From a virus: 64,000 nt of DNA. Under the pieces are notes generated by a model. That model was not told where the DNA came from. It saw nothing but the letters and a program-made list of their open reading frames with translations, and ran no database searches. Shown piece by piece: positions 28,846 to 51,627 of this stretch. The number at the start of each line of letters is the position of its first letter. The first letter of the stretch is position 1. Both the position numbers and the translations under genes were made by a program. The stretch is from the IMG/VR virus record IMGVR_UViG_3300044684_000361, positions 17,419 through 81,418 of that record. The stretch is one strand, 5' to 3'.

Positions 28846-29775
28846 TTAAAGGCCCGGCGTGCCCCAAAGAGCGCGCGGGTCGGTCCAAGAGTGAGGAGCA
28901 TAGCGCTCGCCCAACTTGTACCGGGCGGAATCGGTCTCGAAGTCGCCCTCCATGGAGCGCTCCACACCACGGCGACGAACCATCTGAAGGCCCATCTTCA
29001 CCGTCTCCTTGCTCGCCAGGATGAACCAGGCAGTGTTGGAGGTGAGACGCGCCAGATTGGCTTGGCCGCCCTTGAGCAGACCCATGGCCGGCACCGGGTT
29101 GATGTCATTCACCATTGCGCCGGTACGCAGGACGCTCTTGAGCAGCACCTCACCCTGCAAGAGGTTCGAGGGGCTCAGGACGAGCTTGTAAGGCTCTACG
29201 CGGATTTTGCGGCCCGTGGAGTCCACCGCCGAGCGCATTTGGATCAGTAGCTGTTCCAAGGAGGTCTGGGACAGGGCCGCTGCCGAGGCCAGCTGGTTGG
29301 AGAATGTCAAACCGCCGTAGATCGGGTGCGCGGTATTGATAAGCGAGACGCCGTCGCCGCCGACATACGCGGAGTTGAAGGCGCGGTTGATCGCGTTCGC
29401 TCCCAGCAGCTCTTGAGTCTCGATCAGGGACTGGGTGGCATGCTCGGCGAAGATCTTGCCGATGCGGATATGATCACCGTCCTCAGCCAGGACTTTGGTG
29501 ATGGCGAAGGCCATGCCATAGACCTTGTAGACGTATCGCTGAATGAACAGCGTACCGCCTTGCTGGTAGACATACGGCTGGCCGTCCGGGACTTCCGGAG
29601 CTGCCGTGAAGCCAAACAGCATCGGCTCCTCGTGATAGGCGCGGGCGGTGCCCTTCACTTCCGTGAAGACCTCCTCCCACTCGTTCTTACGCTGGAGCAT
29701 GACGCCGTCATGGACCTTATTCAGGATCGGCTCGACAACCGCCTTAAGGTCTGAACTCCGAATTGGTGCGGCCAT
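28846..29775 (-). CDS. major capsid protein
   Basis: 309 aa; YHEEPMLFGF, GGDGVSL..TAHP, MEGDFETDSARYK..ERY, DPRALWGTPG; position after portal/scaffold. Confidence 0.85.
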   Translation of the reverse strand: MAAPIRSSDLKAVVEPILNKVHDGVMLQRKNEWEEVFTEVKGTARAYHEEPMLFGFTAAPEVPDGQPYVYQQGGTLFIQRYVYKVYGMAFAITKVLAEDGDHIRIGKIFAEHATQSLIETQELLGANAINRAFNSAYVGGDGVSLINTAHPIYGGLTFSNQLASAAALSQTSLEQLLIQMRSAVDSTGRKIRVEPYKLVLSPSNLLQGEVLLKSVLRTGAMVNDINPVPAMGLLKGGQANLARLTSNTAWFILASKETVKMGLQMVRRRGVERSMEGDFETDSARYKLGERYAPHSWTDPRALWGTPGL

Positions 29776-33360: not shown

Positions 33361-33506
33361 TTCCCCCTCCCCCGCATGTGGGGCCGCATGCTCTTGGGAA
33401 GCGTTGAGCCTTTGGGTTGCGAATACGGTTTACCCGTAGTCGCATACTTGTAGCGTTGCGGAACCTTCTCGGAAGGGACGTTCTTTGCTTTGGGGACATC
33501 AGCCAT
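33357..33506 (-). CDS. small basic protein (not in ORF track)
   Basis: MADVPKAKNVPSEKVPQRYKYATTGK...RGRGK, 49 aa, overlaps portal stop and next start. Confidence 0.55.
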   Translation of the reverse strand: MADVPKAKNVPSEKVPQRYKYATTGKPYSQPKGSTLPKSMRPHMRGRGK

Positions 33507-36312
33507 TGGAATCTCCACTTTGTTTGGCCGCCTTCTGGGCGGAAATCTGTTGCTGCTTCAATTCGTTCTGATCCTTGGCCTGCTGGGCGGAGAGGTCGGC
33601 TTTCTTCTCCTCCATGGCCATGGAGTCCTGATGCTCCTGCTGCCGAGCCTGGTGCTCCATCTGCATCGATTGCTGTTCGTGAGCCATCCTCTGGCCCTCC
33701 ACCTGCATCTCGTTGCTCATCCGTTGACCCTCTAGATGCATATCCGCCTGGAGCTGTTGCTGGGTCTGGATCTGCTTCGCCTGCTCCTTCATCTGAGTGC
33801 GAGCGGTCTCGGCCTGCTCGTGCTCGCGGGCAATCGCCAACTTGGTCTGCTGGTTGCCCTGGCTGTCTTGCTGTTTGACTGTGTTCGCCTGCTGACGATC
33901 GGCATGCTCCTGCTCGGCCTGCTTTGCTTTCTGCTGCACTGAGGCCATCTGGGCATGCGAGGGGTCCATCATCGGCGGGGGAAGCATCGCCTGGAGCGCC
34001 TGCTGGATCTTGCCCATGGTCTGGATAGCTCTTTGCAGGGTTTGGTCCTGCTGGGCGAGCTGCATGACCTGGGTGGATGTCTTGGCGAGCATCTGGTCAT
34101 AGAGTTGGCTCAACTGGGGATCATGCTGGGAGTGTTGCGGCAACTCGCCTATGTCAACCTCACCAGCCTGCGGGTCCATGCTTTTTGCCACCTGGGTCGC
34201 ATGCTCAGAGGCAATCTGATGCACCTTGGTGGCGTACCAGAAGATGACATGCTCTTTGAGATTGCCCATGAGCCCCTGCATGGCCTGGGGGTTGGAGCTG
34301 ACCACGGCTGAGAAGAAGGGGTTCTCGTAGAAGTCGCAATGCGCCTGGATATGGGCTTCGTGATCCTGCTGCGGGAAGGCGACGATCGGGCGGCCGAGGC
34401 AGACCGCCACATTCTCGTTGATGGGGTTCATCTGCTGTGGTTCAGGCTTCTGAACCAGAAGATCCTTACCATCGTTGGGGAGCTTCATCTGCTTGAGAAT
34501 CAGCTCCTCCACCTTGCGCATGTCGTAGATGCCCGCGCCGCCCGGGGTGACAGCGAGCTGTAGCGCGCGTTGAGCAACTGTCTGAATCTGGCCGTAGCGC
34601 TGAACTTCGCAAAAAATGTTTGGGTCGGAGACCGGAATGACATCATTCGGGCCCTCGAAATCCTTCTGCGTGACCAGCTGTTCGCCCAGAAGCTCTGTGA
34701 CGACATGGTCATCCAGCCACGTCTTGTTGATACGGTGAAGGATCTTGAGCAGCCGATCCATGGCGTTGTGCATACGCCCATGAATGGCTGAGAAGGCCAC
34801 CATCCCTTGCTCAATGCGGGCGAGGGTCGTGCCCACGGGCACATCACCATTGGCCTGAGCCTCCTCGATCGTGGTCCGGATCACATCCTCGGCTTGCTCG
34901 CCCAGGAGCCCCAGGAGATTCAGAAGGACCGGGGAAGGCGGCCCGAAGGGCACCGGCATGATGATCTTGCGGATGTCATCCTGATCGCCCGAGCCCTCGA
35001 TCTCGGTGACCTCGGTCGGGCCCACCCGGATGTTCTGGCCAGTCCCTGCGGCGGACTTGATCTTGATCATCCCCGCCAGGTTGTTGATATGAGCACTGTC
35101 CAGCAGTGCCCGCAGGGCCCCCGTGGCGGCGATCGACAGGCCCCCAATAATATGGGGCAGCCCGAGTGCATAAGCGCCACGGAATGGGATAAAAGGGAAT
35201 TCAGCGGCCCAGTCGAGGCGCTCCCGGTAGTTGTCGGATTCTTCCCAGTTACGATAGACGGCCAGCAACTCCTTGGTCGTTACGTCAATCGAGATGAGAT
35301 ACGGCAGCGGACCCACCTCGGTGGCTTCCTCCTCGGCAGTCTCGCCTGACTCATCGGGTCGCACATCCTCCTGCAGGCTTTCAGTGTGGGAGCCCTTTTT
35401 CTTAGAATCGCGAATCTCGAAATAGCAGTCGCACTCGTACACCACGCGCAGGCCATCGGGATTGGAGTTATCACTCTCCTTGCCCTCTACCTTGGAGATA
35501 ACCTGCTGTGTCTCGGTCTCTTCCGGCTGGATCGGGGCCCCCATCTCTTCGATGGCGCGGTACATCCCCGTGCGAATACGCCGCTGGAATTCCTGAGCGG
35601 TCATCTTCTGCACGTGGGTGCGTCGCTCAGCGGTGTAATAGTTGGTCGCGGCGTAAGGGAGAATCATGTCATCCACAGGAATCCACTCGTGGGTGACGTT
35701 GCGGATATCGCCGCCTGCCGGAGGCGGGATCAGCTTCATGTACTCATCCCCATCCATGGGTAGGTTCATGAGCATCTGCTCGCATTCGGAGCGAAAATTC
35801 GGCATCAACTGGGTCAGCTGATAGTTCATCCAGCGGGCCTTGCGGCGCGAACGGTCAAGACGGTCAGTCGTGATCGAACCCGCCATATATTCACGCACGG
35901 GCCCGCCTGGCGGAAACAGCTCTTTGATCGTACGAGCCTCGAAGTCGATCGAGGCTTTGGTATACATGGGGTGCGTGACATGGGAGGCGCCCGAGAAGTT
36001 AGCTCCGCCAATGGTCTCTTTCTCAAGACCCATCCGCTTCTTACCCTCGGCGACCTGCTCATCCCGTCGCTTACGGTCTTGGATGTCCTTCTCAATCAAC
36101 TCCACGAGGGTTGTTGAGATGAGTGCTCGCTCCTCCTCGGTCAGCTCTTTGGCAAGGTTGCGATAGAAGTCTTTCGACTCCTCAGATTCGCCGCTTTTCT
36201 TTTCAACGAGACTCGCGGACCCATCCGGGTTTTCCGTGATCTCATAGTCAGATTCTCCGGTATTGGTCTGATCGACCATGCCAGAGAGTGTTTGATCATT
36301 CTGGTCAGGCAC
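33499..36312 (-). CDS. portal protein
   Basis: 937 aa; GASHVTHP, ELFPPGGPV, MNYQLT, PVGTTLARIEQG, PVSDPNIF; Gln-rich C-terminal coiled coil; follows TerL. Confidence 0.9.
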   Translation of the reverse strand: MPDQNDQTLSGMVDQTNTGESDYEITENPDGSASLVEKKSGESEESKDFYRNLAKELTEEERALISTTLVELIEKDIQDRKRRDEQVAEGKKRMGLEKETIGGANFSGASHVTHPMYTKASIDFEARTIKELFPPGGPVREYMAGSITTDRLDRSRRKARWMNYQLTQLMPNFRSECEQMLMNLPMDGDEYMKLIPPPAGGDIRNVTHEWIPVDDMILPYAATNYYTAERRTHVQKMTAQEFQRRIRTGMYRAIEEMGAPIQPEETETQQVISKVEGKESDNSNPDGLRVVYECDCYFEIRDSKKKGSHTESLQEDVRPDESGETAEEEATEVGPLPYLISIDVTTKELLAVYRNWEESDNYRERLDWAAEFPFIPFRGAYALGLPHIIGGLSIAATGALRALLDSAHINNLAGMIKIKSAAGTGQNIRVGPTEVTEIEGSGDQDDIRKIIMPVPFGPPSPVLLNLLGLLGEQAEDVIRTTIEEAQANGDVPVGTTLARIEQGMVAFSAIHGRMHNAMDRLLKILHRINKTWLDDHVVTELLGEQLVTQKDFEGPNDVIPVSDPNIFCEVQRYGQIQTVAQRALQLAVTPGGAGIYDMRKVEELILKQMKLPNDGKDLLVQKPEPQQMNPINENVAVCLGRPIVAFPQQDHEAHIQAHCDFYENPFFSAVVSSNPQAMQGLMGNLKEHVIFWYATKVHQIASEHATQVAKSMDPQAGEVDIGELPQHSQHDPQLSQLYDQMLAKTSTQVMQLAQQDQTLQRAIQTMGKIQQALQAMLPPPMMDPSHAQMASVQQKAKQAEQEHADRQQANTVKQQDSQGNQQTKLAIAREHEQAETARTQMKEQAKQIQTQQQLQADMHLEGQRMSNEMQVEGQRMAHEQQSMQMEHQARQQEHQDSMAMEEKKADLSAQQAKDQNELKQQQISAQKAAKQSGDSNG

Positions 36313-36712
36313 GCGGGTAGGGCTCCACTTCTGGCTTATAGCCGTTATGCAAACGAAGGTTTTCTTTGGCTCCTACACGCACCCTGACCTTAAAAAGGTG
36401 CTGCCGGCTTTCCATGCAGTACCCATATTCAACTTGGGGCCATGTCCGGATATAGATATCTTGTGGCAGCTGATCGATGGTGGATCGCATAGCCGCAAGA
36501 CAAGCCGACAGGCTTTCTCCGATCCATCCCAGAGTTATGAAATCAATACGGTGAGACTGCCAATCGTCCGGCAAGAAGCCGCCTTTGCCAGGCATAACCT
36601 CTTGTATCACTGCATAGGCAGTAGTAAATCCATCAACACAACGATGAGTCCGATGCATGTATTCCCTCAGCAGCGCCTGAGCGCGGAACACTGCAAAGCC
36701 ATTAATAGGCAT
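36305..36712 (-). CDS. hypothetical protein between TerL and portal
   Basis: ORF overlapping both neighbours; lower GC than flanks. Confidence 0.5.
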   Translation of the reverse strand: MPINGFAVFRAQALLREYMHRTHRCVDGFTTAYAVIQEVMPGKGGFLPDDWQSHRIDFITLGWIGESLSACLAAMRSTIDQLPQDIYIRTWPQVEYGYCMESRQHLFKVRVRVGAKENLRLHNGYKPEVEPYPRA

Positions 36713-38339
36713 AGGGATTCGCCGTGGCTGGAGTGGATCTGCGACCCGCATACTTCTCTTGATAGACCGGCATGCGCAGCCAGTTACGAAAGAGCCACAG
36801 GAGCGCCTGAGTGGCAGAGTCCATCAGGTCATCATGGGGAATGGAGTATTCCCCGGCATAGGCGCACATCTGGCCGATCAAGGGCTCGGCCCAGGCGGAG
36901 AAGGTGTTGGCACTACGAGCCTGATCAGCCATGCCCTGGGGAGCACCGCAGGAGGGACAGGTTTCCTCATCTTTGCGGCCGATCTGCCATTGCTGGTGAC
37001 AGCTGCCGCAGGTGCGGATCGCAGTAAGCGGAGCCCAGACGATCTGCTGCACGAACATGGGCGCCACGAGGTTCAACCGCATCAACTTGTCAGCCTTACC
37101 GGGGTTGTAAGGCATGACAGGAACCCCTTCCCGGCGTAATTGCTGGCGCAGGGAGATCCCGGAATTCTTGTCTTCGATCAGGATCAGGTCTGCTTTGCGA
37201 CCCTGGTTGAACATCCGCTTCGGACCAAAGAGCGGGGTGATCTTGGGCACCAAGGCATCAAGCCCATAACGTTTCTCCTTCTCCTTCTTCACCCGCGCCA
37301 CGAGATCAGGGAATCCCAGACGATCCTGCCAGGCATCCAGAAGAAGGATCTGAGGGCGGCCACGCTTCAACTGCTGGATTTCCTGATAGGAGAGATCCCG
37401 CCGCCGATCAAGCGCATCCTGCTCCTCCTTCGGCAGCGGCTCCTTCCAGGCTCCCCAGACAGAGCAGGCGGTGTAGTCGGTCTTGCGTCCTTCCGGGTCC
37501 TTTTTGACATCCACCGCATCCTCGGAGAGGGCGGTATCCAAGGACATCAGCACCACTTCGAAGTCAGGGAGCGGCTCGTTATGGGGCCAGCGCTGCCATT
37601 GGGAGCGCTTGATGACGCCCAGTTCCTCGGCATCCAGCAGCTCACCGGCCAGCTCCTGGCGGCCCAGGCGCGTGCCTTTGAGCACGTTCATCTGCTTGAG
37701 GAAGTTATCCGAGAGGTTGGCTCGGTTCTCTTCCGTGTTGCCGCCGATCTTCTTGATGGTCTTGTCGGCGAAGAAGGTCTTGATCAACTCCTTGGGCTTT
37801 GGAGTGGATGTGATGACGCAGGTGGTGCGCTTGCCGAGGCGGTGGCCAAACTTGGCCTGCTCCCAGGCGGAAACATCATCGATCCAGGCCGCTACCTCAT
37901 CACAGGCGAGAAAATGGCACTGCGGGCCGCGTAGGCGCTCCGATTCCTCGGCGGAGAAGCCGCGCAGAACGGAGTCGTTGTAGAACTGAATGACCGAATC
38001 TGTCTTGTTGTAGTATTTGATCAGACAGGAGGGAACCTGGCGAATGATCCCCGATTCCCCTTCGAAATTGACATACCTGATGTCATTGTGGGTCGGAGCG
38101 ATGATATGGCCGAAGGCCTTGGGATGCTCACATAGCTCCCAGGCGATCCATTGACTCAGGGTGAGGGACTTGCCGAAACCGCGTCCCGCATGGATGAAGA
38201 CCGTGTCATATGTCAATTTGTTGAAATCTATGACCTGCTTGGGCCTCGCCATCTGCAGCCAGCGGGTTCGCCATTCCAACTTAGCGAGATCCCATAAGGA
38301 AAGGGAACCCAGAGTGGCGCGTAGCTCAGCCTCACTCAT
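36702..38339 (-). CDS. terL: terminase large subunit
   Basis: Walker A AGRGFGKS, LRGPQ, Walker B LACDEVAAW, TSTPKP, nuclease SLDTA...IEDK..G..HDDLMDS. Confidence 0.95.
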   Translation of the reverse strand: MSEAELRATLGSLSLWDLAKLEWRTRWLQMARPKQVIDFNKLTYDTVFIHAGRGFGKSLTLSQWIAWELCEHPKAFGHIIAPTHNDIRYVNFEGESGIIRQVPSCLIKYYNKTDSVIQFYNDSVLRGFSAEESERLRGPQCHFLACDEVAAWIDDVSAWEQAKFGHRLGKRTTCVITSTPKPKELIKTFFADKTIKKIGGNTEENRANLSDNFLKQMNVLKGTRLGRQELAGELLDAEELGVIKRSQWQRWPHNEPLPDFEVVLMSLDTALSEDAVDVKKDPEGRKTDYTACSVWGAWKEPLPKEEQDALDRRRDLSYQEIQQLKRGRPQILLLDAWQDRLGFPDLVARVKKEKEKRYGLDALVPKITPLFGPKRMFNQGRKADLILIEDKNSGISLRQQLRREGVPVMPYNPGKADKLMRLNLVAPMFVQQIVWAPLTAIRTCGSCHQQWQIGRKDEETCPSCGAPQGMADQARSANTFSAWAEPLIGQMCAYAGEYSIPHDDLMDSATQALLWLFRNWLRMPVYQEKYAGRRSTPATANPYAY

Positions 38340-39425: not shown

Positions 39426-39588
39426 AGCACTGCATGACGCAGTTACAGATCGCTTGCTCGGGGCGCCAATCGCTCTTGCTGTAGAGGTGATTCACGATCG
39501 TGATCTCTTCCCCGGCTTTTTCATCTACGCTCGAAACTTCGACGAAATACCCTTCCGGGTAAGTCGTCATCGTCACCTTGATCATCAT
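39388..39588 (-). CDS. hypothetical protein
   Basis: 66 aa, overlaps previous stop. Confidence 0.5.
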   Translation of the reverse strand: MMIKVTMTTYPEGYFVEVSSVDEKAGEEITIVNHLYSKSDWRPEQAICNCVMQCYAHLREPHGTKT

Positions 39589-41264
39589 CAGCCCCGCAGG
39601 AGAATGATCCCGTCTCCGTCTCCCAGTGTAACACCGGCAAAGAGAGCCCCTGAGTTGATAGTCGGTTGCTGGCTACCGGTGAGGAAATGCCACACCCCGG
39701 GGAGCATGGAGGTAGTCACAGTCTGGGAGCCATTGCCCCTCGGATTCACGATCGCAACCCCGCCCGTGAACTGGCGTGACCAGATCCCGAACGTTCCCCC
39801 TGCCCAGGTAGCCGTGCTGGGGCGTGTGGTCAGGGGAAAGCCGAGGTAGCCCCTCGGGACATTCACTTGGGTGAGAGAGTCATCCCCGTACTCGTCATAC
39901 CACCTGAGTGTCGCATAGTCGTACGTGCTGATTGTTCCGGGAGCAAAGTAACCATCGTCCATGAGCGCGGTGCAGAGCCCATAGCGCAGAGTCTGATACT
40001 CCAGGGCGCTGCCGGCCGTGACGTTGGTCGGGGTCCCGTTGACGGGGAAGGAGGAGGGGTGATTGCCATCCGTGGTCGGAAACCGGCATCCCAGGCCTAC
40101 CATCTTGGGCGGCAGGCAGAAATCCATCCCCAGGTAGTAGTTGGCGAGCGTATTGGCCCACCCTGAAGGATCGAGCTTCCCGGTGCTGAAATTACCCGTC
40201 TGGAAAAACTCCCAGGCATTTCCCCCGGCGAACATCGCGCTCTCCAGCAAGCCACCCTGGAGGTTGTCCAGGCCGGAATTGAGGAGGGCCGTCCGGCCAA
40301 ACTGATAAGCGTTGGCGTACTGGCCAAAGTTGCCGAATGCATAGGTGACCGCTCCAGGCTGGTAGAGACCCACCATGATCTGGAACTGGTCGAAGGCGTT
40401 TCGATTACCGCGCGCCATGAGCGGCTGCACGGTGTCGAAGTTGGGGAATCCACCGCCTTGCTGGGCGCCAGGAGCCAGAGTGAGACCATCCAAGGAGGAA
40501 TTTGGAACCGTCCCTGAGCCATCAAGGGCGGCGAAAACGTTATCGAGGAACATTCCTCCACAGGAGGGGGAGGCCATCTGCGGATTGAAGCTGAAGCGAC
40601 TGTCTACCCCGGCAGAGGGTCGAACGACGTATTTGAGCGCAGCATAGTTTCCAAGAGAGCGCGCAGGGCCCTGTGCTCCTGTAGGTGAGCCGGAGGAAGT
40701 CGAACCGTAATTCGACCCACAGATGGATGCCCCCACTCCAGCGTTACCGACTCCGGTAGGCCATGCTGCCGAATAATTGACAAGATTAGTGCCTCCTCCA
40801 GCAGGAGTGATGGTGCCCGTGCCCCCGGTTGATTCATAAAGCCACCAGTTATTGTTTTGGACCAATGTGAAATACTGTTGATACGCCGATCCAGTGGCCA
40901 CCCCGCTCATCATCATCTGGTAGTAGAAGGGCAGACAGCGGCGTGTCTTGGACTTCTGTACCGTATAGCTGGCGTTCTTCAACAGCGCCTGTGTGAGATT
41001 CTCGCGGTCGCGATTCCCGTTGGAATCCCAACCTTCCGTACTGCCATTCAGGATGGCAATGTCGTAAGCCCCGATGGCCTGGATTGCGTTGTAGGCAGCG
41101 GTCCCATTGGCAGCCGTGGTCCAGGCCGGGAATCCAGTCCCAGCGCTTGATCCGTAGCTTTGGTCTCCACCAACGAACACCCCCATGACACGGGGGAAGG
41201 CGAGACCTACTGAAACGACAGTGGTGTAGGCTCTATTTTTTGGCCCGAACCATCTTTGAGTCAT
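39588..41264 (-). CDS. putative glycoside hydrolase (GHL15-like)
   Basis: GMFLDNVF, LRYGLCTALMDDGYF, WYDEY, GYLGFP, GIWSRQFTGGVAIVNP, DGIILLR; start refined to 41264. Confidence 0.65.
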   Translation of the reverse strand: MTQRWFGPKNRAYTTVVSVGLAFPRVMGVFVGGDQSYGSSAGTGFPAWTTAANGTAAYNAIQAIGAYDIAILNGSTEGWDSNGNRDRENLTQALLKNASYTVQKSKTRRCLPFYYQMMMSGVATGSAYQQYFTLVQNNNWWLYESTGGTGTITPAGGGTNLVNYSAAWPTGVGNAGVGASICGSNYGSTSSGSPTGAQGPARSLGNYAALKYVVRPSAGVDSRFSFNPQMASPSCGGMFLDNVFAALDGSGTVPNSSLDGLTLAPGAQQGGGFPNFDTVQPLMARGNRNAFDQFQIMVGLYQPGAVTYAFGNFGQYANAYQFGRTALLNSGLDNLQGGLLESAMFAGGNAWEFFQTGNFSTGKLDPSGWANTLANYYLGMDFCLPPKMVGLGCRFPTTDGNHPSSFPVNGTPTNVTAGSALEYQTLRYGLCTALMDDGYFAPGTISTYDYATLRWYDEYGDDSLTQVNVPRGYLGFPLTTRPSTATWAGGTFGIWSRQFTGGVAIVNPRGNGSQTVTTSMLPGVWHFLTGSQQPTINSGALFAGVTLGDGDGIILLRG

Positions 41265-41565
41265 GCGAGGCACTCCGACTTTGGTCTGCCTCAAGAGTCT
41301 GGATCTTCTTGCGCGCTCCTTCCAGTTGTTCGAGCAGTTGAGCCTTCTCCTCATCGAGGCCCCGGAGCCGCAAGGCCTGGCGACGGATCAAGGCAATGGC
41401 GTCGCGGATCTCATCTGCGAGCCATGCCTCGATTTTGTCGCTGTCCTTCACCCGTCGCGGGTGAGTCTTCACCATATCCCCCACGAGGCGCCTCTCCAGG
41501 CGCTCTGTGATGAGGTTGTAGTCAGCATCCGAGCCCTTTGCAGAGCCAGGAGGGGAGCCAACCAT
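41233..41565 (-). CDS. coiled-coil hypothetical protein
   Basis: 110 aa. Confidence 0.55.
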   Translation of the reverse strand: MVGSPPGSAKGSDADYNLITERLERRLVGDMVKTHPRRVKDSDKIEAWLADEIRDAIALIRRQALRLRGLDEEKAQLLEQLEGARKKIQTLEADQSRSASHDSKMVRAKK

Positions 41566-43350: not shown

Positions 43351-43728
43351 CTAGACACGACGGGGTAGTACTTTCGACCCTGGCCAGGGGCAAGGAAGTC
43401 CCAGACGCGCCTGAAGCTGTTCCCACATCTCCCGCTCCGAGCAGAGCGCCTTGGCGAAGGACTTGCGTCCCCCAGAGATCGAGACACGGTAGCGCTCGGG
43501 GAGGTGGGTGAGCTGATGAGCGTCCCAGTCGCCCTGATGGTGGCCTCGACAGAGGAACATGGTGTGGAAGTGGGAGATTCTACGCCCACCATCGAGAAGG
43601 TGATGGAGTTCAAGATTTTTAACATTCCGAGTTCCTGTGGCCGCCAGGCACGCACAACATCCCATGGGGCGCATCATGTCAATGCGCGCCTGTTCCTCCT
43701 CGGTGGGAGGAGGTAGAGCAGTCTTCAT
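43351..43728 (-). CDS. Ref-like HNH nuclease (recombination enhancement family)
   Basis: GCCAC...ELHHL..G.RISHFHT..LCRGHHQG. Confidence 0.7.
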   Translation of the reverse strand: MKTALPPPTEEEQARIDMMRPMGCCACLAATGTRNVKNLELHHLLDGGRRISHFHTMFLCRGHHQGDWDAHQLTHLPERYRVSISGGRKSFAKALCSEREMWEQLQARLGLPCPWPGSKVLPRRV

Positions 43729-43851
43729 GGGGAAGGCAGTGTAGCGCGAAGAGGAGAGCCCCGGTGCCAGCAACCCTGCCGGGGGCAGGTTTAGGAGGAG
43801 CACTGTGTGGGACAGATGCTCGCCCGCTGTGGCTGCGGGACTTCGGAAAGT

Positions 43852-46992: not shown

Positions 46993-47179
46993 GCTTCTCT
47001 CCTGCGCTGAGAGAGCTTCTCTGGCGTTCGTCTTCGGCTTCCAGAACGCGCCGAGCAGTCTGTAATTGGAGCTTTATCCCTTTCTCCAGTGCGTCAAGTT
47101 CCTTGAGCGAGATACCAGCCGGTATTTCCAGCTTCGCTACAGCGCCCGGGCCAACAGACCATTGGAAGTAGACGTTCAT
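46982..47179 (-). CDS. hypothetical protein
   Basis: 65 aa. Confidence 0.5.
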   Translation of the reverse strand: MNVYFQWSVGPGAVAKLEIPAGISLKELDALEKGIKLQLQTARRVLEAEDERQRSSLSAGEKHES

Positions 47180-47682
47180 GGCTGTTCCGGTGTTGCGCTG
47201 ACGGCGTTTCTAACTTCCCGCCTCTCGTCCTGCATCCTAATCATCGCGTCGCGGAAATCCCGCTGCCGCTTGACCTCGGCCAGCACGAAATCAGGTGGCA
47301 GGGGAACGGTGGTGGACTTGAGAGTGCCTTCACCGTCGCTCGTGGCGAGCCACATCCGCCCTTCGGCGTAGTCATCGAACACGTGGCCCATGTGCTCGAA
47401 GTAGTTGATGCGCCAATTGTTGAAGGGCTCCTTCTCGCCAAACCCAGAGCAGAAGTAAGCGATGCGCGCTGAGTCGGTGCCGTCTCTGTTCCACTCATCG
47501 ACAGTGCAACCGTACTTGCCGCCGCGACTCTGCGGCTCCAACTCAGCGAGCGCGAGCGCCTTCGTGCGGTCCGGGCCGCAATAGACCGGATACTGGCCGC
47601 CGTTGAGCCAACCCCAGCGATAAGCTGTCACGAGATAGAGTTTAAGATCCTCATAGGGAATCGTGTCAGGATCTGTTTCCAT
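47176..47682 (-). CDS. hypothetical protein
   Basis: 168 aa, YLVTAYRWG...RGGKYGC. Confidence 0.6.
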   Translation of the reverse strand: METDPDTIPYEDLKLYLVTAYRWGWLNGGQYPVYCGPDRTKALALAELEPQSRGGKYGCTVDEWNRDGTDSARIAYFCSGFGEKEPFNNWRINYFEHMGHVFDDYAEGRMWLATSDGEGTLKSTTVPLPPDFVLAEVKRQRDFRDAMIRMQDERREVRNAVSATPEQP

Positions 47683-47785
47683 GCTTATCCCCTTGATGGT
47701 CAGCGCTTGAGTTCCCGCTGAACGCGGGCCTGCTCATGTGCCAGTAGGATTGTCTAGGATCAGAGAGAAGTCAAGCGCGAAGTGT

Positions 47786-47859
47786 TGGATCGGGGAGAAG
47801 GGGTCGAACCCTCGTTATCTGGTCCAAAGCCAGATGTCCTACCGTTAGACGATCCCCGA
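47786..47859 (-). tRNA. tRNA-Gln (anticodon TTG)
   Basis: TCGGGGA/TCCCCGA acceptor, D arm, TCTGG-CTTTGGA-CCAGA anticodon arm, GGTTCGACCC T arm, encoded CCA. Confidence 0.92.
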
Positions 47860-48120
47860 GAAAATCACCTCGATCGTATAGGCCGTGAGCGGCCGGTTCG
47901 GTTTGCCATCAGGGCGAAGGGGGCGGACCTTGGATGTCCTTCGATACTCCGTGAGGGCCCCCTGAAGGGTCTCAAACTTCAGCGCCTCATCCTTGTCCTT
48001 CGTGCCCACGATCTCCCCGCGTCCCCATCGGAAGTCCGGATCATAGGCTTTGACATAGAGCCCATCGAGGTCAGACTCCTCCCCCGTGGCGAGCCCGACC
48101 ATCTTCAGGTAGTAGCTCAT
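47845..48120 (-). CDS. conserved phage protein
   Basis: PLRPDGKPNRPLTAYTIEV; last 15 nt overlap the tRNA. Confidence 0.6.
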   Translation of the reverse strand: MSYYLKMVGLATGEESDLDGLYVKAYDPDFRWGRGEIVGTKDKDEALKFETLQGALTEYRRTSKVRPLRPDGKPNRPLTAYTIEVIFSGIV

Positions 48121-48123
48121 ATG

Positions 48124-48288
48124 TCAATCCTTGAGCACATAACGGATGGCCAGTTCGGCCATCTTCGGAATCGGCCGAAATCCGCACCAGCGGCGGATCG
48201 TCCGCTCCGACTTCCCCAGACGCCGCGCCAACTCCCGCTGACTCATCCCCCTCAAGTCCAAAAGCCGTCTGAGATCACGAGCCGTCAT
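48124..48288 (-). CDS. Cro/XRE-family HTH regulator (not in ORF track)
   Basis: MTARDLRRLLDLRGMSQRELARRLGKSERTIRRW...PIP, 54 aa, ATGA overlap with upstream HTH gene. Confidence 0.75.
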   Translation of the reverse strand: MTARDLRRLLDLRGMSQRELARRLGKSERTIRRWCGFRPIPKMAELAIRYVLKD

Positions 48289-48536
48289 AGTTCTATGTCA
48301 ATCATGGTCCCATGATCTCCTCTGCCCAGGTGTAACTCCCATACTCCCCCCGTCCTCTCCCAGGCCGCCAAAAGCGACTCCACCGCAACCCGATCCGCCC
48401 CTTCCAAAAAAGCCCACAGGTTCGGCTGCGCAATCCCCATCCTCCGAGCCGCCTCCGCCTGGCTGATCCCCTCCTCCCGTATCCACTCCCGGATCACCCG
48501 CCTGATCTGACCCATCATCTGATCCTTGGTACCCAT
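48285..48536 (-). CDS. XRE-family HTH regulator
   Basis: GISQAEAARRMGIAQPNLWAFL. Confidence 0.75.
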   Translation of the reverse strand: MGTKDQMMGQIRRVIREWIREEGISQAEAARRMGIAQPNLWAFLEGADRVAVESLLAAWERTGGVWELHLGRGDHGTMIDIEL

Positions 48537-48709
48537 AAAAGGCCTTATATCATTTTGATATTGGATGGGGAATGGGGCCCCTGTAGGCCACTGTAGCGGT
48601 GTAGCAGTCAGGACGGGGATGGCCCTGGGCCGGGACTGAGGGGTCTTCTGGGACAGAAGGGGGGCTATAGGCCTCAGAAGGGCAAGAGGGGGTGGAGCGC
48701 AGATGGGAC

Positions 48710-49061
48710 CCGGCCAGGCCCCGCCATCGCGCTCCCCCGGGGGTGGGGGTCGGCCCAGTCCTGGCCAGGACTAGCCAGGCCCAGGGCAATAGGCCTAGTC
48801 CAGGCCAGTCAGACGAAGAGAATCAAGAGGTTATGATTTAACATATGATCCATTATACGAAGTTCGTGCTCATCCTCGGGCCTGGCTGATCCTTCGCGGG
48901 CCTTGGCCCAGGCCTGGCCGGGAAGGGCCTGGAGCCCACCCCTTCCTGGCCCTGTACGGCCCCCTCCTGGCCCTGTACGCGATCCTAGGCCCTATCCCAT
49001 CCCTTGGGCCTGGTCCTGCCCATCCTCCTCCTTCCTGCCCTGATCCTGGCCTATCTGGCCT
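48710..49061. repeat. dispersed GGCCTGG/CCTGGCC heptamer array around an AT-rich core
   Basis: many copies; mostly CCAGGCC left of the core, GGCCTGG/CCTGGCC right of it; direct repeat TCCTGGCCCTGTACG x2. Confidence 0.6.
48836..48863 (-). other. dif-like XerC/XerD recombination site
   Basis: minus strand ACTTCGTATAA-TGGATC-ATATGTTAAAT: 11-6-11 layout, XerD arm 10/11 to TTATGTTAAAT, pdif-like XerC arm. Confidence 0.8.
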
Positions 49062-49245
49062 GATCCAAGAGGTGTAGGAGTCGTTGCAGGCTGCAATAGA
49101 GCATGGAGGCTTCGTAGAGGGCGTTGGGGGGGAGTTTGGGATGGTGGCTGAGGTGTTCCAAGGTGGGTTGCCAGGTTTTCAACTCTGTCGCGAGCCTGCG
49201 CAACTTGAGGCGTTCCACCTCGGTGAGTTTTGCATCGATCCTCAT
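49051..49245 (-). CDS. hypothetical protein
   Basis: 64 aa helical. Confidence 0.45.
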   Translation of the reverse strand: MRIDAKLTEVERLKLRRLATELKTWQPTLEHLSHHPKLPPNALYEASMLYCSLQRLLHLLDQAR

Positions 49246-49384
49246 CCTTCACCCCCGTCTAACCCTTGAGCGGCCGTCTTGTCGCCCGTCCGTCAACCCC
49301 TCGTCAAGCCATCCAGAACATTAAGAATTGTCAAGACCCATCCAATCATGGACTTACGTCACAAAATATTTCGTACATCCCCCT

Positions 49385-49412
49385 TTGACGTTGTACAGAT
49401 ACAGAGTAGGAT
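49385..49412 (+). promoter_or_regulatory. sigma70-like early promoter
   Basis: TTGACG-16bp-TAGGAT with AT-rich upstream; spacer contains TGTACAGATAC also seen at 936. Confidence 0.6.
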
Positions 49413-49461
49413 ACCTCTCACTGAATTGACATACCGACCGACCCCACAGGAGATATGAGCC

Positions 49462-49602
49462 GTGGAGATGATCACCCCGAAACTACGTCTTGCCGTGCTC
49501 GCCACCTACGCCCGTGCTGCCCGGCAAGCCAACCCCATCCGTCCAGAAAGACAGGCAACCGCCTGGGCCTTTCGTCTGAATCGCTTCCGTATCCGCTGGT
49601 AA
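49462..49602 (+). CDS. small early protein (not in ORF track)
   Basis: 46 aa after CAGGAG..GAGCCGTG start motif. Confidence 0.5.
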   Translation: MEMITPKLRLAVLATYARAARQANPIRPERQATAWAFRLNRFRIRW

Positions 49603-49622
49603 CCACATAGGACACACGCACC

Positions 49623-50177
49623 ATGTTCACCTACCTCGCTTGCCGATGCCTCGTGACGCACGACCAAGCCGGAAATCCGGTTCCCGTTTGCCCCTGGCAT
49701 CGCAACCCCATCGCCTCGGAAACCTTTATCTTCGTTCCCGCTGGCTCCCTGATCAGCCAGCTGGACCATACGTATCGCGTTCTGAACGTGCATTGCGACG
49801 TCGATGACGACTTCGTCACCGTTGACGAGGACGGCACACCCCTAAGCTTCTGGAAGACGCGCGCCATGCGCTTCACGGACAAGCCCGTTCTCTCCGGACG
49901 TGATTTCCTTGTCTGCCCGGATGAGCACACCAAAAAGGCTCTGTGCATGTTCGTGGGCCATTCGAACTATCCGGTCGGTCTACTCGCCAGCAATGCCTCG
50001 TCCGAAGTAAATGATTCGCTGCGGATGCGTAGCCTCACCCTTGAGGCATCCCGCTCCTACCTCGACCCAAAAGACAAGGCCCACGGCTACTACCTTCCCA
50101 TCGCCGAGCGGTACATAGAGCGCTATCGCGGTCGCCGCTACAGCGAACCCCTCACCACCATCGTCACCGTACCATAG
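49623..50177 (+). CDS. hypothetical protein
   Basis: 184 aa, start-associated motif. Confidence 0.6.
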   Translation: MFTYLACRCLVTHDQAGNPVPVCPWHRNPIASETFIFVPAGSLISQLDHTYRVLNVHCDVDDDFVTVDEDGTPLSFWKTRAMRFTDKPVLSGRDFLVCPDEHTKKALCMFVGHSNYPVGLLASNASSEVNDSLRMRSLTLEASRSYLDPKDKAHGYYLPIAERYIERYRGRRYSEPLTTIVTVP

Positions 50178-50180
50178 GAG

Positions 50181-50232
50181 TGACTCTCTAGGATGGGCCT
50201 GGCAAGGGCTCAGACCCATCCGTGTACGGTCA
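50181..50232 (+). ncRNA. conserved intergenic stem-loop, copy 1 (candidate RNase III site)
   Basis: homologous to 53802-53851 with compensatory changes. Confidence 0.55.
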
Positions 50233-50262
50233 TCAACCCCGCAACCATAGGAGCATTGAGCC

Positions 50263-50544
50263 ATGGCCCGCTGCGCCTCCGTTGAAAACCTGCTCGCTAT
50301 CAAAGATGTAACGCCCGAGATAGCGGGCCTGGACAAGCAACCGACAGTCAAACAGATGAAGAACCGGATGCACGCCGGTCACCGCGAATGCCTCACAGCG
50401 ATTCGGGATGGGAAACAGATCGGTCGCCCCGGGATCACGGCCGGTGAGATTCGCGGTTATCGCGTGATATTGGACACCTTGCGCCGTTGGGGCGCCGTGA
50501 ATGACGCCGGGCTGACCGACATCGGTCGACAGTTACTGTCCTGA
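50263..50544 (+). CDS. hypothetical protein
   Basis: 93 aa, start-associated motif. Confidence 0.6.
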   Translation: MARCASVENLLAIKDVTPEIAGLDKQPTVKQMKNRMHAGHRECLTAIRDGKQIGRPGITAGEIRGYRVILDTLRRWGAVNDAGLTDIGRQLLS

Positions 50545-50646
50545 CCATCAATGAGTACGCCTAGCGTCAAACAGATGAAGCAGCGAATGCTCCCGGCGCA
50601 TTGGCTGGTGCTGGAAGTTCTGTCCGGGTCGAAAGGAGAATTCCAA

Positions 50647-50895
50647 ATGATCACGCATCTAACGTTCGTCGGGAGCGCCGCTGGCTCACCATACTGTGGT
50701 GAACCACGTAATAGCACGGACAAGTATGTACACGGCATGTTTGCGCCGTTGCACAGCAAAGAATTCCGTGTGACGGCTTGTAAGAGTTGCCTGGCTCAAT
50801 ATCTGGATTCGTTCGATGCTGATGAGTCATTGCCGGAATGGGCGGATGAATTGGGCCCCATACAACTCGGGCTATTTACAGGCGAAAAGGAGTAA
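50647..50895 (+). CDS. small Cys-containing protein
   Basis: AAGGAG RBS before ATG 50647; HLT.VG..AG.PYC...C..C. Confidence 0.55.
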   Translation: MITHLTFVGSAAGSPYCGEPRNSTDKYVHGMFAPLHSKEFRVTACKSCLAQYLDSFDADESLPEWADELGPIQLGLFTGEKE

Positions 50896-50904
50896 ATAAG
50901 CACC

Positions 50905-51627
50905 ATGCCACGCATCACCGCAACCCTCCTTACCGCAGAGGATAGCGAGACGGGCCTGACAGGCCTGATCGTTAAAGGCCTGCCACGACCCATGAACGGC
51001 ACGACGAACACCGCTACCGAAGGGCTTCTCATCGCGCACGACCTGATTGAACATGTAAACGGCGTGCAGCACATCGGCACCATCAATGATGAGCTGGAGG
51101 CTTTGGGCGCTATGTGGTACGTGCGCGGCCAACATGGCGATCTACACCGTAATCGGTTGGCCGCTGAATACTCCGTCGAGGACAATATCGCCGCCGATGT
51201 GGTGCAAATGTTCACCGATCACATATTCGGCTCCCCGGTTGATTACTACGGCCGCGTCGGTCGCGACTGCGAACGCCAACACACGCGCGCCTGTAATGCC
51301 GATGAGGCGCTGCGGCTAATCATGCGCATTGCCGCCGACGAGCAACGCCGGGAGTTAGGTAGCTACGCCGCGCAAGCCAAAGCCGGCGCGATGTGGCCCG
51401 CCTATGCCGCCCTGTGCCTGGATCTCATGCGCACGGGCTACCGCAAGGCCTATCGGCGTTGGGAACGCCACGGACGCTTTGCTGCCAACAATGCCTTTTG
51501 GGAAATCGCCTATGCCGTCGATCCGTACGCGAAACACTGTGAGTATGTCGGCCAGCGGTTCCAGCTGACCTATGACAGTCGCGCGGAGAATGGCGAACGC
51601 GCCACCTGTGTTGCACTGGACTGGTAA
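50905..51627 (+). CDS. hypothetical protein (AHD.IEH metal-binding-like motif)
   Basis: 240 aa, IAHDLIEH...DELEALG..WYVRG. Confidence 0.6.
   Translation: MPRITATLLTAEDSETGLTGLIVKGLPRPMNGTTNTATEGLLIAHDLIEHVNGVQHIGTINDELEALGAMWYVRGQHGDLHRNRLAAEYSVEDNIAADVVQMFTDHIFGSPVDYYGRVGRDCERQHTRACNADEALRLIMRIAADEQRRELGSYAAQAKAGAMWPAYAALCLDLMRTGYRKAYRRWERHGRFAANNAFWEIAYAVDPYAKHCEYVGQRFQLTYDSRAENGERATCVALDW

Follow-up and report, generated by a model that had tools for sequence, protein, structure and literature searches.

The subject of this report is a 28-bp sequence resembling dif, the chromosomal site served by the bacterial recombinases XerC and XerD, in a 64,000-nucleotide stretch of DNA (the window) from IMG/VR virus record IMGVR_UViG_3300044684_000361. 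The source record, of which the window comprises bases 17419-81418, is 81,418 bp long, is classed as linear with a CheckV completeness estimate of 100% and represents a tailed phage; the sequencing runs that matched the phage were soil and rhizosphere metagenomes only (12 runs from 9 studies). On the minus strand, from position 48863 down to 48836 of the window, the site reads ACTTCGTATAA-TGGATC-ATATGTTAAAT, i.e., an XerC-type arm of 11 bp (48853-48863), a 6-bp spacer (48847-48852) and an XerD-type arm of 11 bp (48836-48846). These 28 bp lie within an untranslated stretch of 514-515 bp (48537-49050) between two leftward genes, one for a 64-residue protein upstream of the site (49051-49245, minus strand) and the other for an 83-residue helix-turn-helix (HTH) protein downstream of it (48285-48536, minus strand), beyond which is a gene for a 54-residue Cro/C1-type HTH protein (48124-48288, minus strand). 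In what follows, the whole phage record is designated G000, a close relative that is 76% complete G005 and the representative of a sister lineage G001.

The site had been proposed in a first-pass annotation, which placed it where the two main transcription blocks of the phage diverge. This location was not confirmed. Since the leftward 64-residue gene is situated to the right of the site and a promoter-like site of the rightward block is found at 49385-49412 (plus strand), the 28 bp are inside the leftward unit, approximately 400-550 bp from the divergence point. The divergence region marked by this promoter-like site (approximately 49260-49420) is conserved between the lineages and is probably an operator and promoter region. 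Several GTCAA/TTGAC words and a 12-bp ACGT-centred palindrome were also noted there (locus L011, 2290-2460) and are kept in both lineages.

Among the neighbouring genes, the 83-residue protein matched Pfam HTH_37 (27.1 bits) as well as HTH DNA-binding and repressor families of PHROG and is approximately 53% identical to its counterpart in G001, and the 54-residue protein matched Pfam HTH_3 (E 1.3e-7) and transcriptional regulators of PHROG. The 64-residue protein had no Pfam or PHROG match, and its C-terminal motif, LKLRRL...LQRLL..LD..AR*, recurs in a frame of G001 when the translation is read by eye. Its gene is evolving fast. Comparison with the G005 copy gave 13 substitutions, distributed 4/4/5 over the codon positions and changing 8 residues, in genomes that are 97-99% identical outside this gene.

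Resemblance of the site to dif

The sequence and 11-6-11 layout were as first annotated, and direct reading bore out the agreement of the XerD arm with the quoted proteobacterial arm at 10 of 11 positions. The AT-rich nature of the core was also borne out; it is the only AT-rich peak of the untranslated stretch (AT 0.70 in a 40-bp window at 48820). The two arms form an imperfect dyad around the spacer, with an intact inner ATAA on the XerC side and, on the XerD side, inner bases that are ATAT in the lineage of the phage and TTAT in that of G001. The identical XerC arm was also present in dif-like sites L206, L275, L277 and L309. In the XerD arm, the A adjacent to the spacer is unusual, the same base being found in 2 of 116 rows from other contigs (L191 and L268). 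The spacer had been said to agree with E. coli TGTATA at the two XerC-proximal bases; these do agree, but so do two others, giving 4 of 6 positions in all. The argument for an XerC-first route that was built on this agreement takes the E. coli spacer as its one point of reference.

The site was unique in the window at up to 3 mismatches, and none of 100 shuffled sequences gave any match. Comparisons were also performed between three reference 28-mers from IMG/VR loci and both strands of the whole 81-kb genome, with 300 dinucleotide shuffles, which preserve global but not local composition, as controls. Thus, an L185-type reference matched the site at 21 of 28 positions and the next best place at 17, with 21 or more matches in 1 of the 300 shuffles; an L183-type reference matched at 23 positions, the best of the 300 shuffles reaching 20; and an L206-type reference, picked post hoc, matched at 25, the best shuffle reaching 19. 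All other places in the genome matched the references at 17 positions or fewer. A weight matrix derived from 77 distinct IMG/VR dif-like 28-mers, the form of scoring suggested with the first-pass annotation, gave 37.6 bits for the site and -3.6 bits for the next best place, values that are partly circular because the pattern with which sites were collected had been written to admit the two variants of the phage. The status of the site as a dif look-alike beyond chance is statistically solid.

Whether such patterns mark chromosomal sites was evident from their distribution among sampled prokaryote genomes. A degenerate pattern with one mismatch allowed was found in exactly one copy in each of 18 of 151 genomes, compared with 1 of 151 for the reversed pattern that served as control, and therefore marks single-copy chromosomal-type sites. 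A strict pattern matched 1 of 401 sampled genomes and none of five named centres.

The DNA on either side of the 28 bp has features of its own. The flank on the XerC side (48864-49050; 187 bp, untranslated and C-rich on the plus strand) contains four copies of GGCCTGG (at 48879, 48911, 48926 and 49007), copies of CCTGGCC and direct repeats of 20-21 bp (48939-48958 and 48960-48979; 49030-49046 and 49050-49066). The flank on the XerD side (48537-48835; untranslated and G-rich on the plus strand) contains CCAGGCC in mirror orientation (at 48714, 48775 and 48800), one further copy of which is at 48908. Together, 8 of the 56 genome copies of GGCCTGG/CCAGGCC are within these 514 bp. The corresponding flanks of G001 carry other words, namely GGATCG, in five copies that are all on the XerC side, and GGACCG/CGGTCC, with the mirror orientation retained. 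That the repeat words have changed together between lineages suggests binding by a phage-specific rather than a host protein. GC skew inverts at the site, with the G-rich strand aimed at it from both sides, to a degree equalled at 0.06% of genome positions, and the same trend was seen at the site of G001. The two flanks are also able to pair (fold z-score -2.63).

Of two islands in the untranslated spacer that are conserved between lineages, one is a GC-rich island on the XerD side (approximately 48690-48757) with short complementary runs of G and C, which might bind a protein or give a structured segment in the leftward transcript. No DnaA box was found in 47000-51000 and no clustering of GATC was seen, leaving a replication origin unsupported, and a known RNA family was rejected after Rfam gave nothing above threshold in the site region. 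In each lineage, a single copy of the E. coli octamer of the FtsK-orienting polar sequences (KOPS) was seen in the vicinity of the site and was directed away from it, although the word used by the host may differ. No minus-strand promoter-like site was called at the core, which lacks a -35 partner.

Relatives, recombinase genes and integrated copies

The exact 28-mer occurred in one other IMG/VR contig, that of G005, the aligned pieces of which are 89-99.8% identical to the phage. A block of 210 bp (48697-48906), which includes the core together with the inner repeats of each flank, is identical in G000 and G005, and outside this block the spacer has been replaced or bears indels. A terminase scan gave five loci, the only other long one being G001 (71,734 bp; terminase 84% identical). 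Its assembly is circular with an overlap of 123 bp, and it is matched at 99.5-99.6% identity by two Joint Genome Institute (JGI) contigs (L301 and L310). The syntenic position in G001, between the HTH gene and a small gene, holds the sequence ACTGCGCATAA-TGCATC-TTATGTCATAT (33.3 bits), in which ACTGCGCATAA corresponds to the XerC-type arm, TGCATC to the spacer and TTATGTCATAT to the XerD-type arm. The site is therefore present at the syntenic position, where it had been suggested that it be sought, in the only two lineages of true relatives that were accessible. The phage and G001 sites agree at 22 of 28 positions as opposed to 241 of 550 columns in the aligned flanks (44-58%; within the closest 150 columns, 70 on one side and 87 on the other), and the six differences avoid a ten-position inner core (P=0.049, with the core defined post hoc).

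In agreement with the first-pass annotation, which had noted no visible integrase, the tyrosine recombinase family PF00589 had no match at E<=1 anywhere in the 81,418-bp record. The search took in the 17.4 kb beyond the window that remained to be checked, and it was equally negative for the complete sister genome G001 and for G005. The serine recombinase family PF00239 gave nothing above the cut-off in G000, G001 and G005; one match below it (11.9 bits, with an internal stop codon) was noted in G005, in a stretch that aligns to the untranslated spacer of the window. Matches to the XafT domain PF12375 (DUF3653) were absent from the same three genomes at E<=10, and no recombinase of any family was found by Pfam scans of 50 open reading frames (ORFs) or PHROG scans of 30.

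These scans identified a sigma factor, a DnaB-like helicase, AAA ATPases, a DUF932 protein and a Ref-like RecA-dependent nuclease (43351-43803), and the minus-strand block codes for the large terminase (36702-38339), portal (33499-36312) and capsid protein (28846-29775) and for tail-like proteins. Phage P1 pairs a Ref-like gene with Cre-lox. Because no DNA polymerase was found among the 50 ORFs scanned with Pfam, in which a DnaB-like helicase is the only such component, replication by the host would fit. In the whole of G000, GATC is present in 642 copies compared with 303 expected from base composition.

The analysis that had been proposed of related prophages bounded by hybrid dif sites revealed none, whether among terminase homologues, in a search with a 23-mer or in contigs from the source runs. 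Thus, the best 36 terminase homologues included none from NCBI genomes, and apart from the 81.4-kb contig of the phage itself the longest contigs were at most 71.4 kb (terminase relatives P0008, P0017-P0019, P0023 and P0024, of 50-62% identity, being on Logan/ENA contigs of 62-71 kb). Alignment-based scans for prophages with generic terminase motifs gave only terminases like those of gene transfer agents (30-43% identity). The 23-mer, composed of the XerD arm and adjoining phage flank, was found in no JGI metagenome contig, in a scan from which the records of the phage itself were possibly excluded. Contigs from four runs of the source sample cross the site, and none was listed with a loose end there; this contig evidence against integration is weak because contigs drop rare forms.

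A protein of 588 residues (39588-41354) without a Pfam or PHROG family was considered as a marker for further relatives. It belongs to a set of 33 proteins, some members of which reach approximately 1000 residues with He_PIG-type domains, is common, in mosaic fashion, to otherwise unrelated phages and probably serves as a tail fibre or in receptor binding. Its use as a family marker was rejected for this mosaicism. Five carriers (G011-G015) had no dif-like site of the kind described here, which says little because these records share little else with the phage; two of the five (G011 and G012) have integrases. In G014, which is integrase-less and has a portal and terminase 27% identical to those of the phage, a weaker dif-like site with a canonical spacer (L339, 13434-13461; 15.5 bits) was noted in an AT-rich gap of 490 bp upstream of a leftward gene, and this may be only a promoter.

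Dif-like sites in metagenomes and other phage records

A metagenome scan with the two arms and an xxNATC spacer gave 23 contigs, 21 of which had no similarity to the phage. The site in one of these contigs (L309), with spacer TGTATC, agreed with that of the window at 26 of 28 positions, and three others (L304, L314 and L316) agreed with that of G001 at 25 of 28 and had the identical spacer TGCATC; L316 is amid ORFs read by eye as bacterial efflux and regulator genes. From these likenesses, both phage variants are within the natural range of dif sites. Among collected dif-type sites the commonest spacer was TGTATA, and in pattern scans of IMG/VR and JGI metagenomes TGGATC was found in no contig outside the phage.

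The degenerate pattern matched at least 117 IMG/VR stretches. Of 24 records longer than 18 kb that were tested, 21 lacked a PF00589 match, among them 7 of the 8 records with a completeness of 90% or more. Four of these records, unrelated to the phage, are 108-147 kb long and have sites of 41-47 bits (G420, L255 6370-6397; G428, L317 3330-3357; G417, L192 7161-7188; G416, L180 7775-7802) but no PF00589 match; completeness is estimated at 100% for three and at 93% for G416, terminal repeats are present in two, three encode ParB_N proteins, and terminase domains were found in G416 and G417. In G420, of 110 kb with terminal repeats, a 47-bit site occupies a short intergenic space surrounded by replication genes, and a relative of this record is Pseudomonas phage nickie, with 71-73% identity across approximately 40% of a 7-kb query. 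In G428, of 108 kb with terminal repeats and a 44-bit site, the replication genes resemble those of Aeromonas plasmids of 103-135 kb, and one related Aeromonas plasmid of 113 kb has ParA and a tail-fibre gene. Strong dif-like sites thus occur sporadically in integrase-less genomes of tailed phages or phage-plasmids. Two identical dif-like sites (L190 25-50 and L199 14077-14102) were also noted in one IMG/VR contig of 36,900 bp with terminal repeats, an arrangement that may represent either an array or an element delimited by Xer sites.

Possible uses of the site

The phage probably borrows host XerC and XerD. This part of the first-pass annotation is supported by the presence of a dif look-alike at a syntenic position in two lineages that have no recombinase. 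We tentatively favour, at appreciably less than even confidence, the reading that the site is a true XerC/XerD core, i.e., a dif mimic, in a small clade of recombinase-free tailed phages from soil, the most likely use of which would be on the circular DNA of the phage itself. With XerC and XerD of the host on its two arms, one copy of the site would recombine with a second, either resolving circular dimers or multimers of a circularised, host-replicated genome to monomers, in the manner of cer, psi and P1 Cre-lox, or circularising a genome that is terminally redundant. The role of the repeat-rich flanks (approximately 190 and 300 bp) would be that of accessory DNA, to which phage proteins, the adjacent HTH regulators for example, may bind and so restrict or time the reaction. 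Recombination of phage with phage would be favoured over that of phage with chromosome because TGGATC and TGCATC differ from the commonest spacer, and a role on the circular DNA of the phage is preferred because of this difference in the spacers, the free phage-sized relatives, the apparently host-dependent replication and the long flanks like those of cer and psi. The Ref-like nuclease gene, given its P1 counterpart, and the strong dif-like sites of unrelated integrase-less records are in keeping with this reading. We infer from the sequence Xer binding, recombination, the role of the flanks and the biological purpose alike.

The cer site of ColE1 and the psi site of pSC101 each consist of an XerC/XerD core of 28-30 bp in a replicon without a recombinase, with approximately 180 bp of accessory DNA by the XerC arm. 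The locus described here has, by its own XerC arm, a repeat-rich untranslated stretch of approximately 190 bp that may be a counterpart of this accessory DNA, but it differs in that the carrier is an 81-kb tailed phage and in that a second, mirror-oriented flank is present on the XerD side. With respect to the circular replicons that carry cer and psi, G001 assembles as a circle, but no Par or Rep protein and no plasmid relative in PLSDB was found for the phage. In tailed phage P1, Cre-loxP serves for cyclisation and for dimer resolution of the circular prophage; unlike P1, which encodes Cre, the phage has no recombinase and would depend on host enzymes. The placement of the core at a sharp inversion of GC skew, with G-rich strands converging on it, is similar to that of chromosomal dif with its KOPS, but the E. 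coli octamer is present only once near the site in either lineage and points away, and the repeat words differ between lineages.

Several observations weigh against the favoured reading. No accessory boxes for ArgR, PepA or ArcA were identified, although no search was aimed at ArgR or PepA boxes. The phage has its own sigma factor, a lytic-looking feature. No ParA/ParB or plasmid Rep protein was recognised in the Pfam and PHROG scans, the sole ParB_N match being below the cut-off (14.6 bits), and PLSDB contained no plasmid relatives, with capsid matches of at most 31% identity; DNA comparison of the site region with plasmids gave a single match of 38 bp. Only two lineages carry the site, and Caulobacter phage RW, the capsid of which shares 63% and the terminase 42% identity with the phage counterparts and which has the same two-block layout, has none at up to 3 mismatches. 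Similarly, no such site was found in Pseudomonas phage nickie or the Aeromonas plasmid, the relatives of two of the larger records. The excess conservation of the site is strong or weak depending on how its flanks are counted: with the BLAST flank identity of 69% over its 190 bp, six changes in 28 are not significantly few (P approximately 0.18, an estimate). Finally, each lineage has one XerD-arm base that is rare among collected sites, and the scores of the phage lineages (33-38 bits) are below those of other phage-borne sites (41-47 bits), which could equally mean decay.

The main rival explanation concerns integration. Mobile elements that exploit Xer to integrate (IMEXs), including CTXphi, VGJphi, TLCphi, the gonococcal genetic island and dif-type double jelly-roll phages, have no integrase of their own, carry a dif-like attP and have regulator genes next to it (PMC12715192, PMC6744903 and PMC4246890); rstR and xafT are the genes that border attP in IMEXs of the inovirus and double jelly-roll types (PMC12715192). 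On this view the site of the phage would be an attP by which host XerC and XerD insert the entire phage at chromosomal dif, and the small deviation of its XerD arm would slow FtsK-driven excision. Like IMEXs, the phage combines a dif-like site with regulator genes alongside and, in complete genomes, the lack of a recombinase of any tested family; the HTH genes that adjoin the site have a parallel in the placement of rstR and xafT. The metagenomic sites close to both variants and the integrases of mosaic relatives G011 and G012, which point to a temperate life among phages sharing genes, are also consistent with this type of lysogeny. On the other hand, the IMEXs named above, which are found integrated at dif, are islands or small elements of filamentous or tailless kind rather than large tailed phages, and the neighbours of the present site match only HTH_37 and HTH_3, with no XafT-like domain beside it as in TLC-type IMEXs. 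No integrated copy has been seen: the best 36 terminase homologues lie on phage-sized contigs and are from sources other than NCBI genomes, the 23-mer search was negative, subject to the possible omission of the records of the phage itself, contigs of the source runs cross the site without a listed loose end (a weak point, as noted above), and spacer TGGATC was absent from contigs outside the phage in the pattern scans. We consider integration of this kind unlikely, though a serious rival. A role for the site outside Xer recombination, as an AT-rich core with mirror-oriented flanks that forms a platform for phage proteins (an operator or immunity region of the adjacent HTH proteins, for example, or an origin with iteron-like repeats and an unwinding element), its likeness to dif being a relic or the result of convergence, is a rather improbable alternative. 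The concentration and mirror orientation of GGCCTGG/CCAGGCC, the direct repeats, the lineage-specific words at equivalent places, as expected for a phage-specific binder, the pairing of the flanks and the flip in GC skew would all fit such a platform, as would a perfect -10-like hexamer read directly inside the XerC arm. Nevertheless, the main operator and promoter region is elsewhere (approximately 49260-49420), the hexamer has no -35 partner and no promoter-like call on the minus strand, DnaA boxes and GATC clusters are lacking, and the matches of both lineages to both Xer arms beyond the level of shuffles are left unexplained.

The same likeness could have been inherited from an ancestor that captured a host dif, e.g., by aberrant excision, and now be drifting without function. 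The scores of 37.6 and 33.3 bits, which are below those of other phage-borne sites, the rare XerD-arm base of each lineage, the more distant relatives without the site and a conservation relative to flanks that is weakly significant under the most conservative count would be expected of a decaying relic, but the site has been kept in one place through 16% terminase divergence, its six changes avoid inner core positions and it is within a 210-bp invariant block amid a hypervariable spacer; this origin seems distinctly unlikely. Chance resemblance in an AT-rich patch is very improbable indeed. The core is AT-rich like dif itself and the shuffles did not preserve local composition, yet 21-25 of 28 positions agree with independent references at this place as opposed to at most 17 everywhere else in the genome, and the second lineage is dif-like too. 

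With the favoured reading of a dif mimic that acts on phage DNA, the locus can also be viewed as a recombinase-free 'lox' system in which the phage supplies dif-mimic DNA and mirror-oriented, lineage-specific flanks read by its own HTH proteins and the host XerC and XerD carry out catalysis, the purpose being either genome circularisation and resolution or reversible entry and exit at the host dif. Taken as a whole, mechanism and purpose together, this view is possible but doubtful.

Exploitation of Xer is on record for plasmids and islands and, among phages, for those of filamentous, satellite and double jelly-roll type (PMC12715192 among the sources), and the tailed-phage papers PMC9703825 and PMC7326022 concern, in the parts available, Xer-like recombinases encoded by the phages. 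Full-text searches of the literature, in which subscription journals were largely outside coverage, returned no tailed phage relying on host XerC and XerD. If the reading is true, together with the records of 108-147 kb, exploitation of Xer would be a general strategy of tailed phages and extend beyond filamentous and tailless elements. If the site works, integrase-less tailed phages could not safely be assumed to be strictly lytic, predictors of prophages and lifestyle that are keyed to integrases would miss such phages, and host Xer and FtsK would be host factors for tailed phages. The locus, with its 28-bp core, two flanks and two HTH genes, is a compact object with which the control exerted by an element over a borrowed recombinase may be tested.

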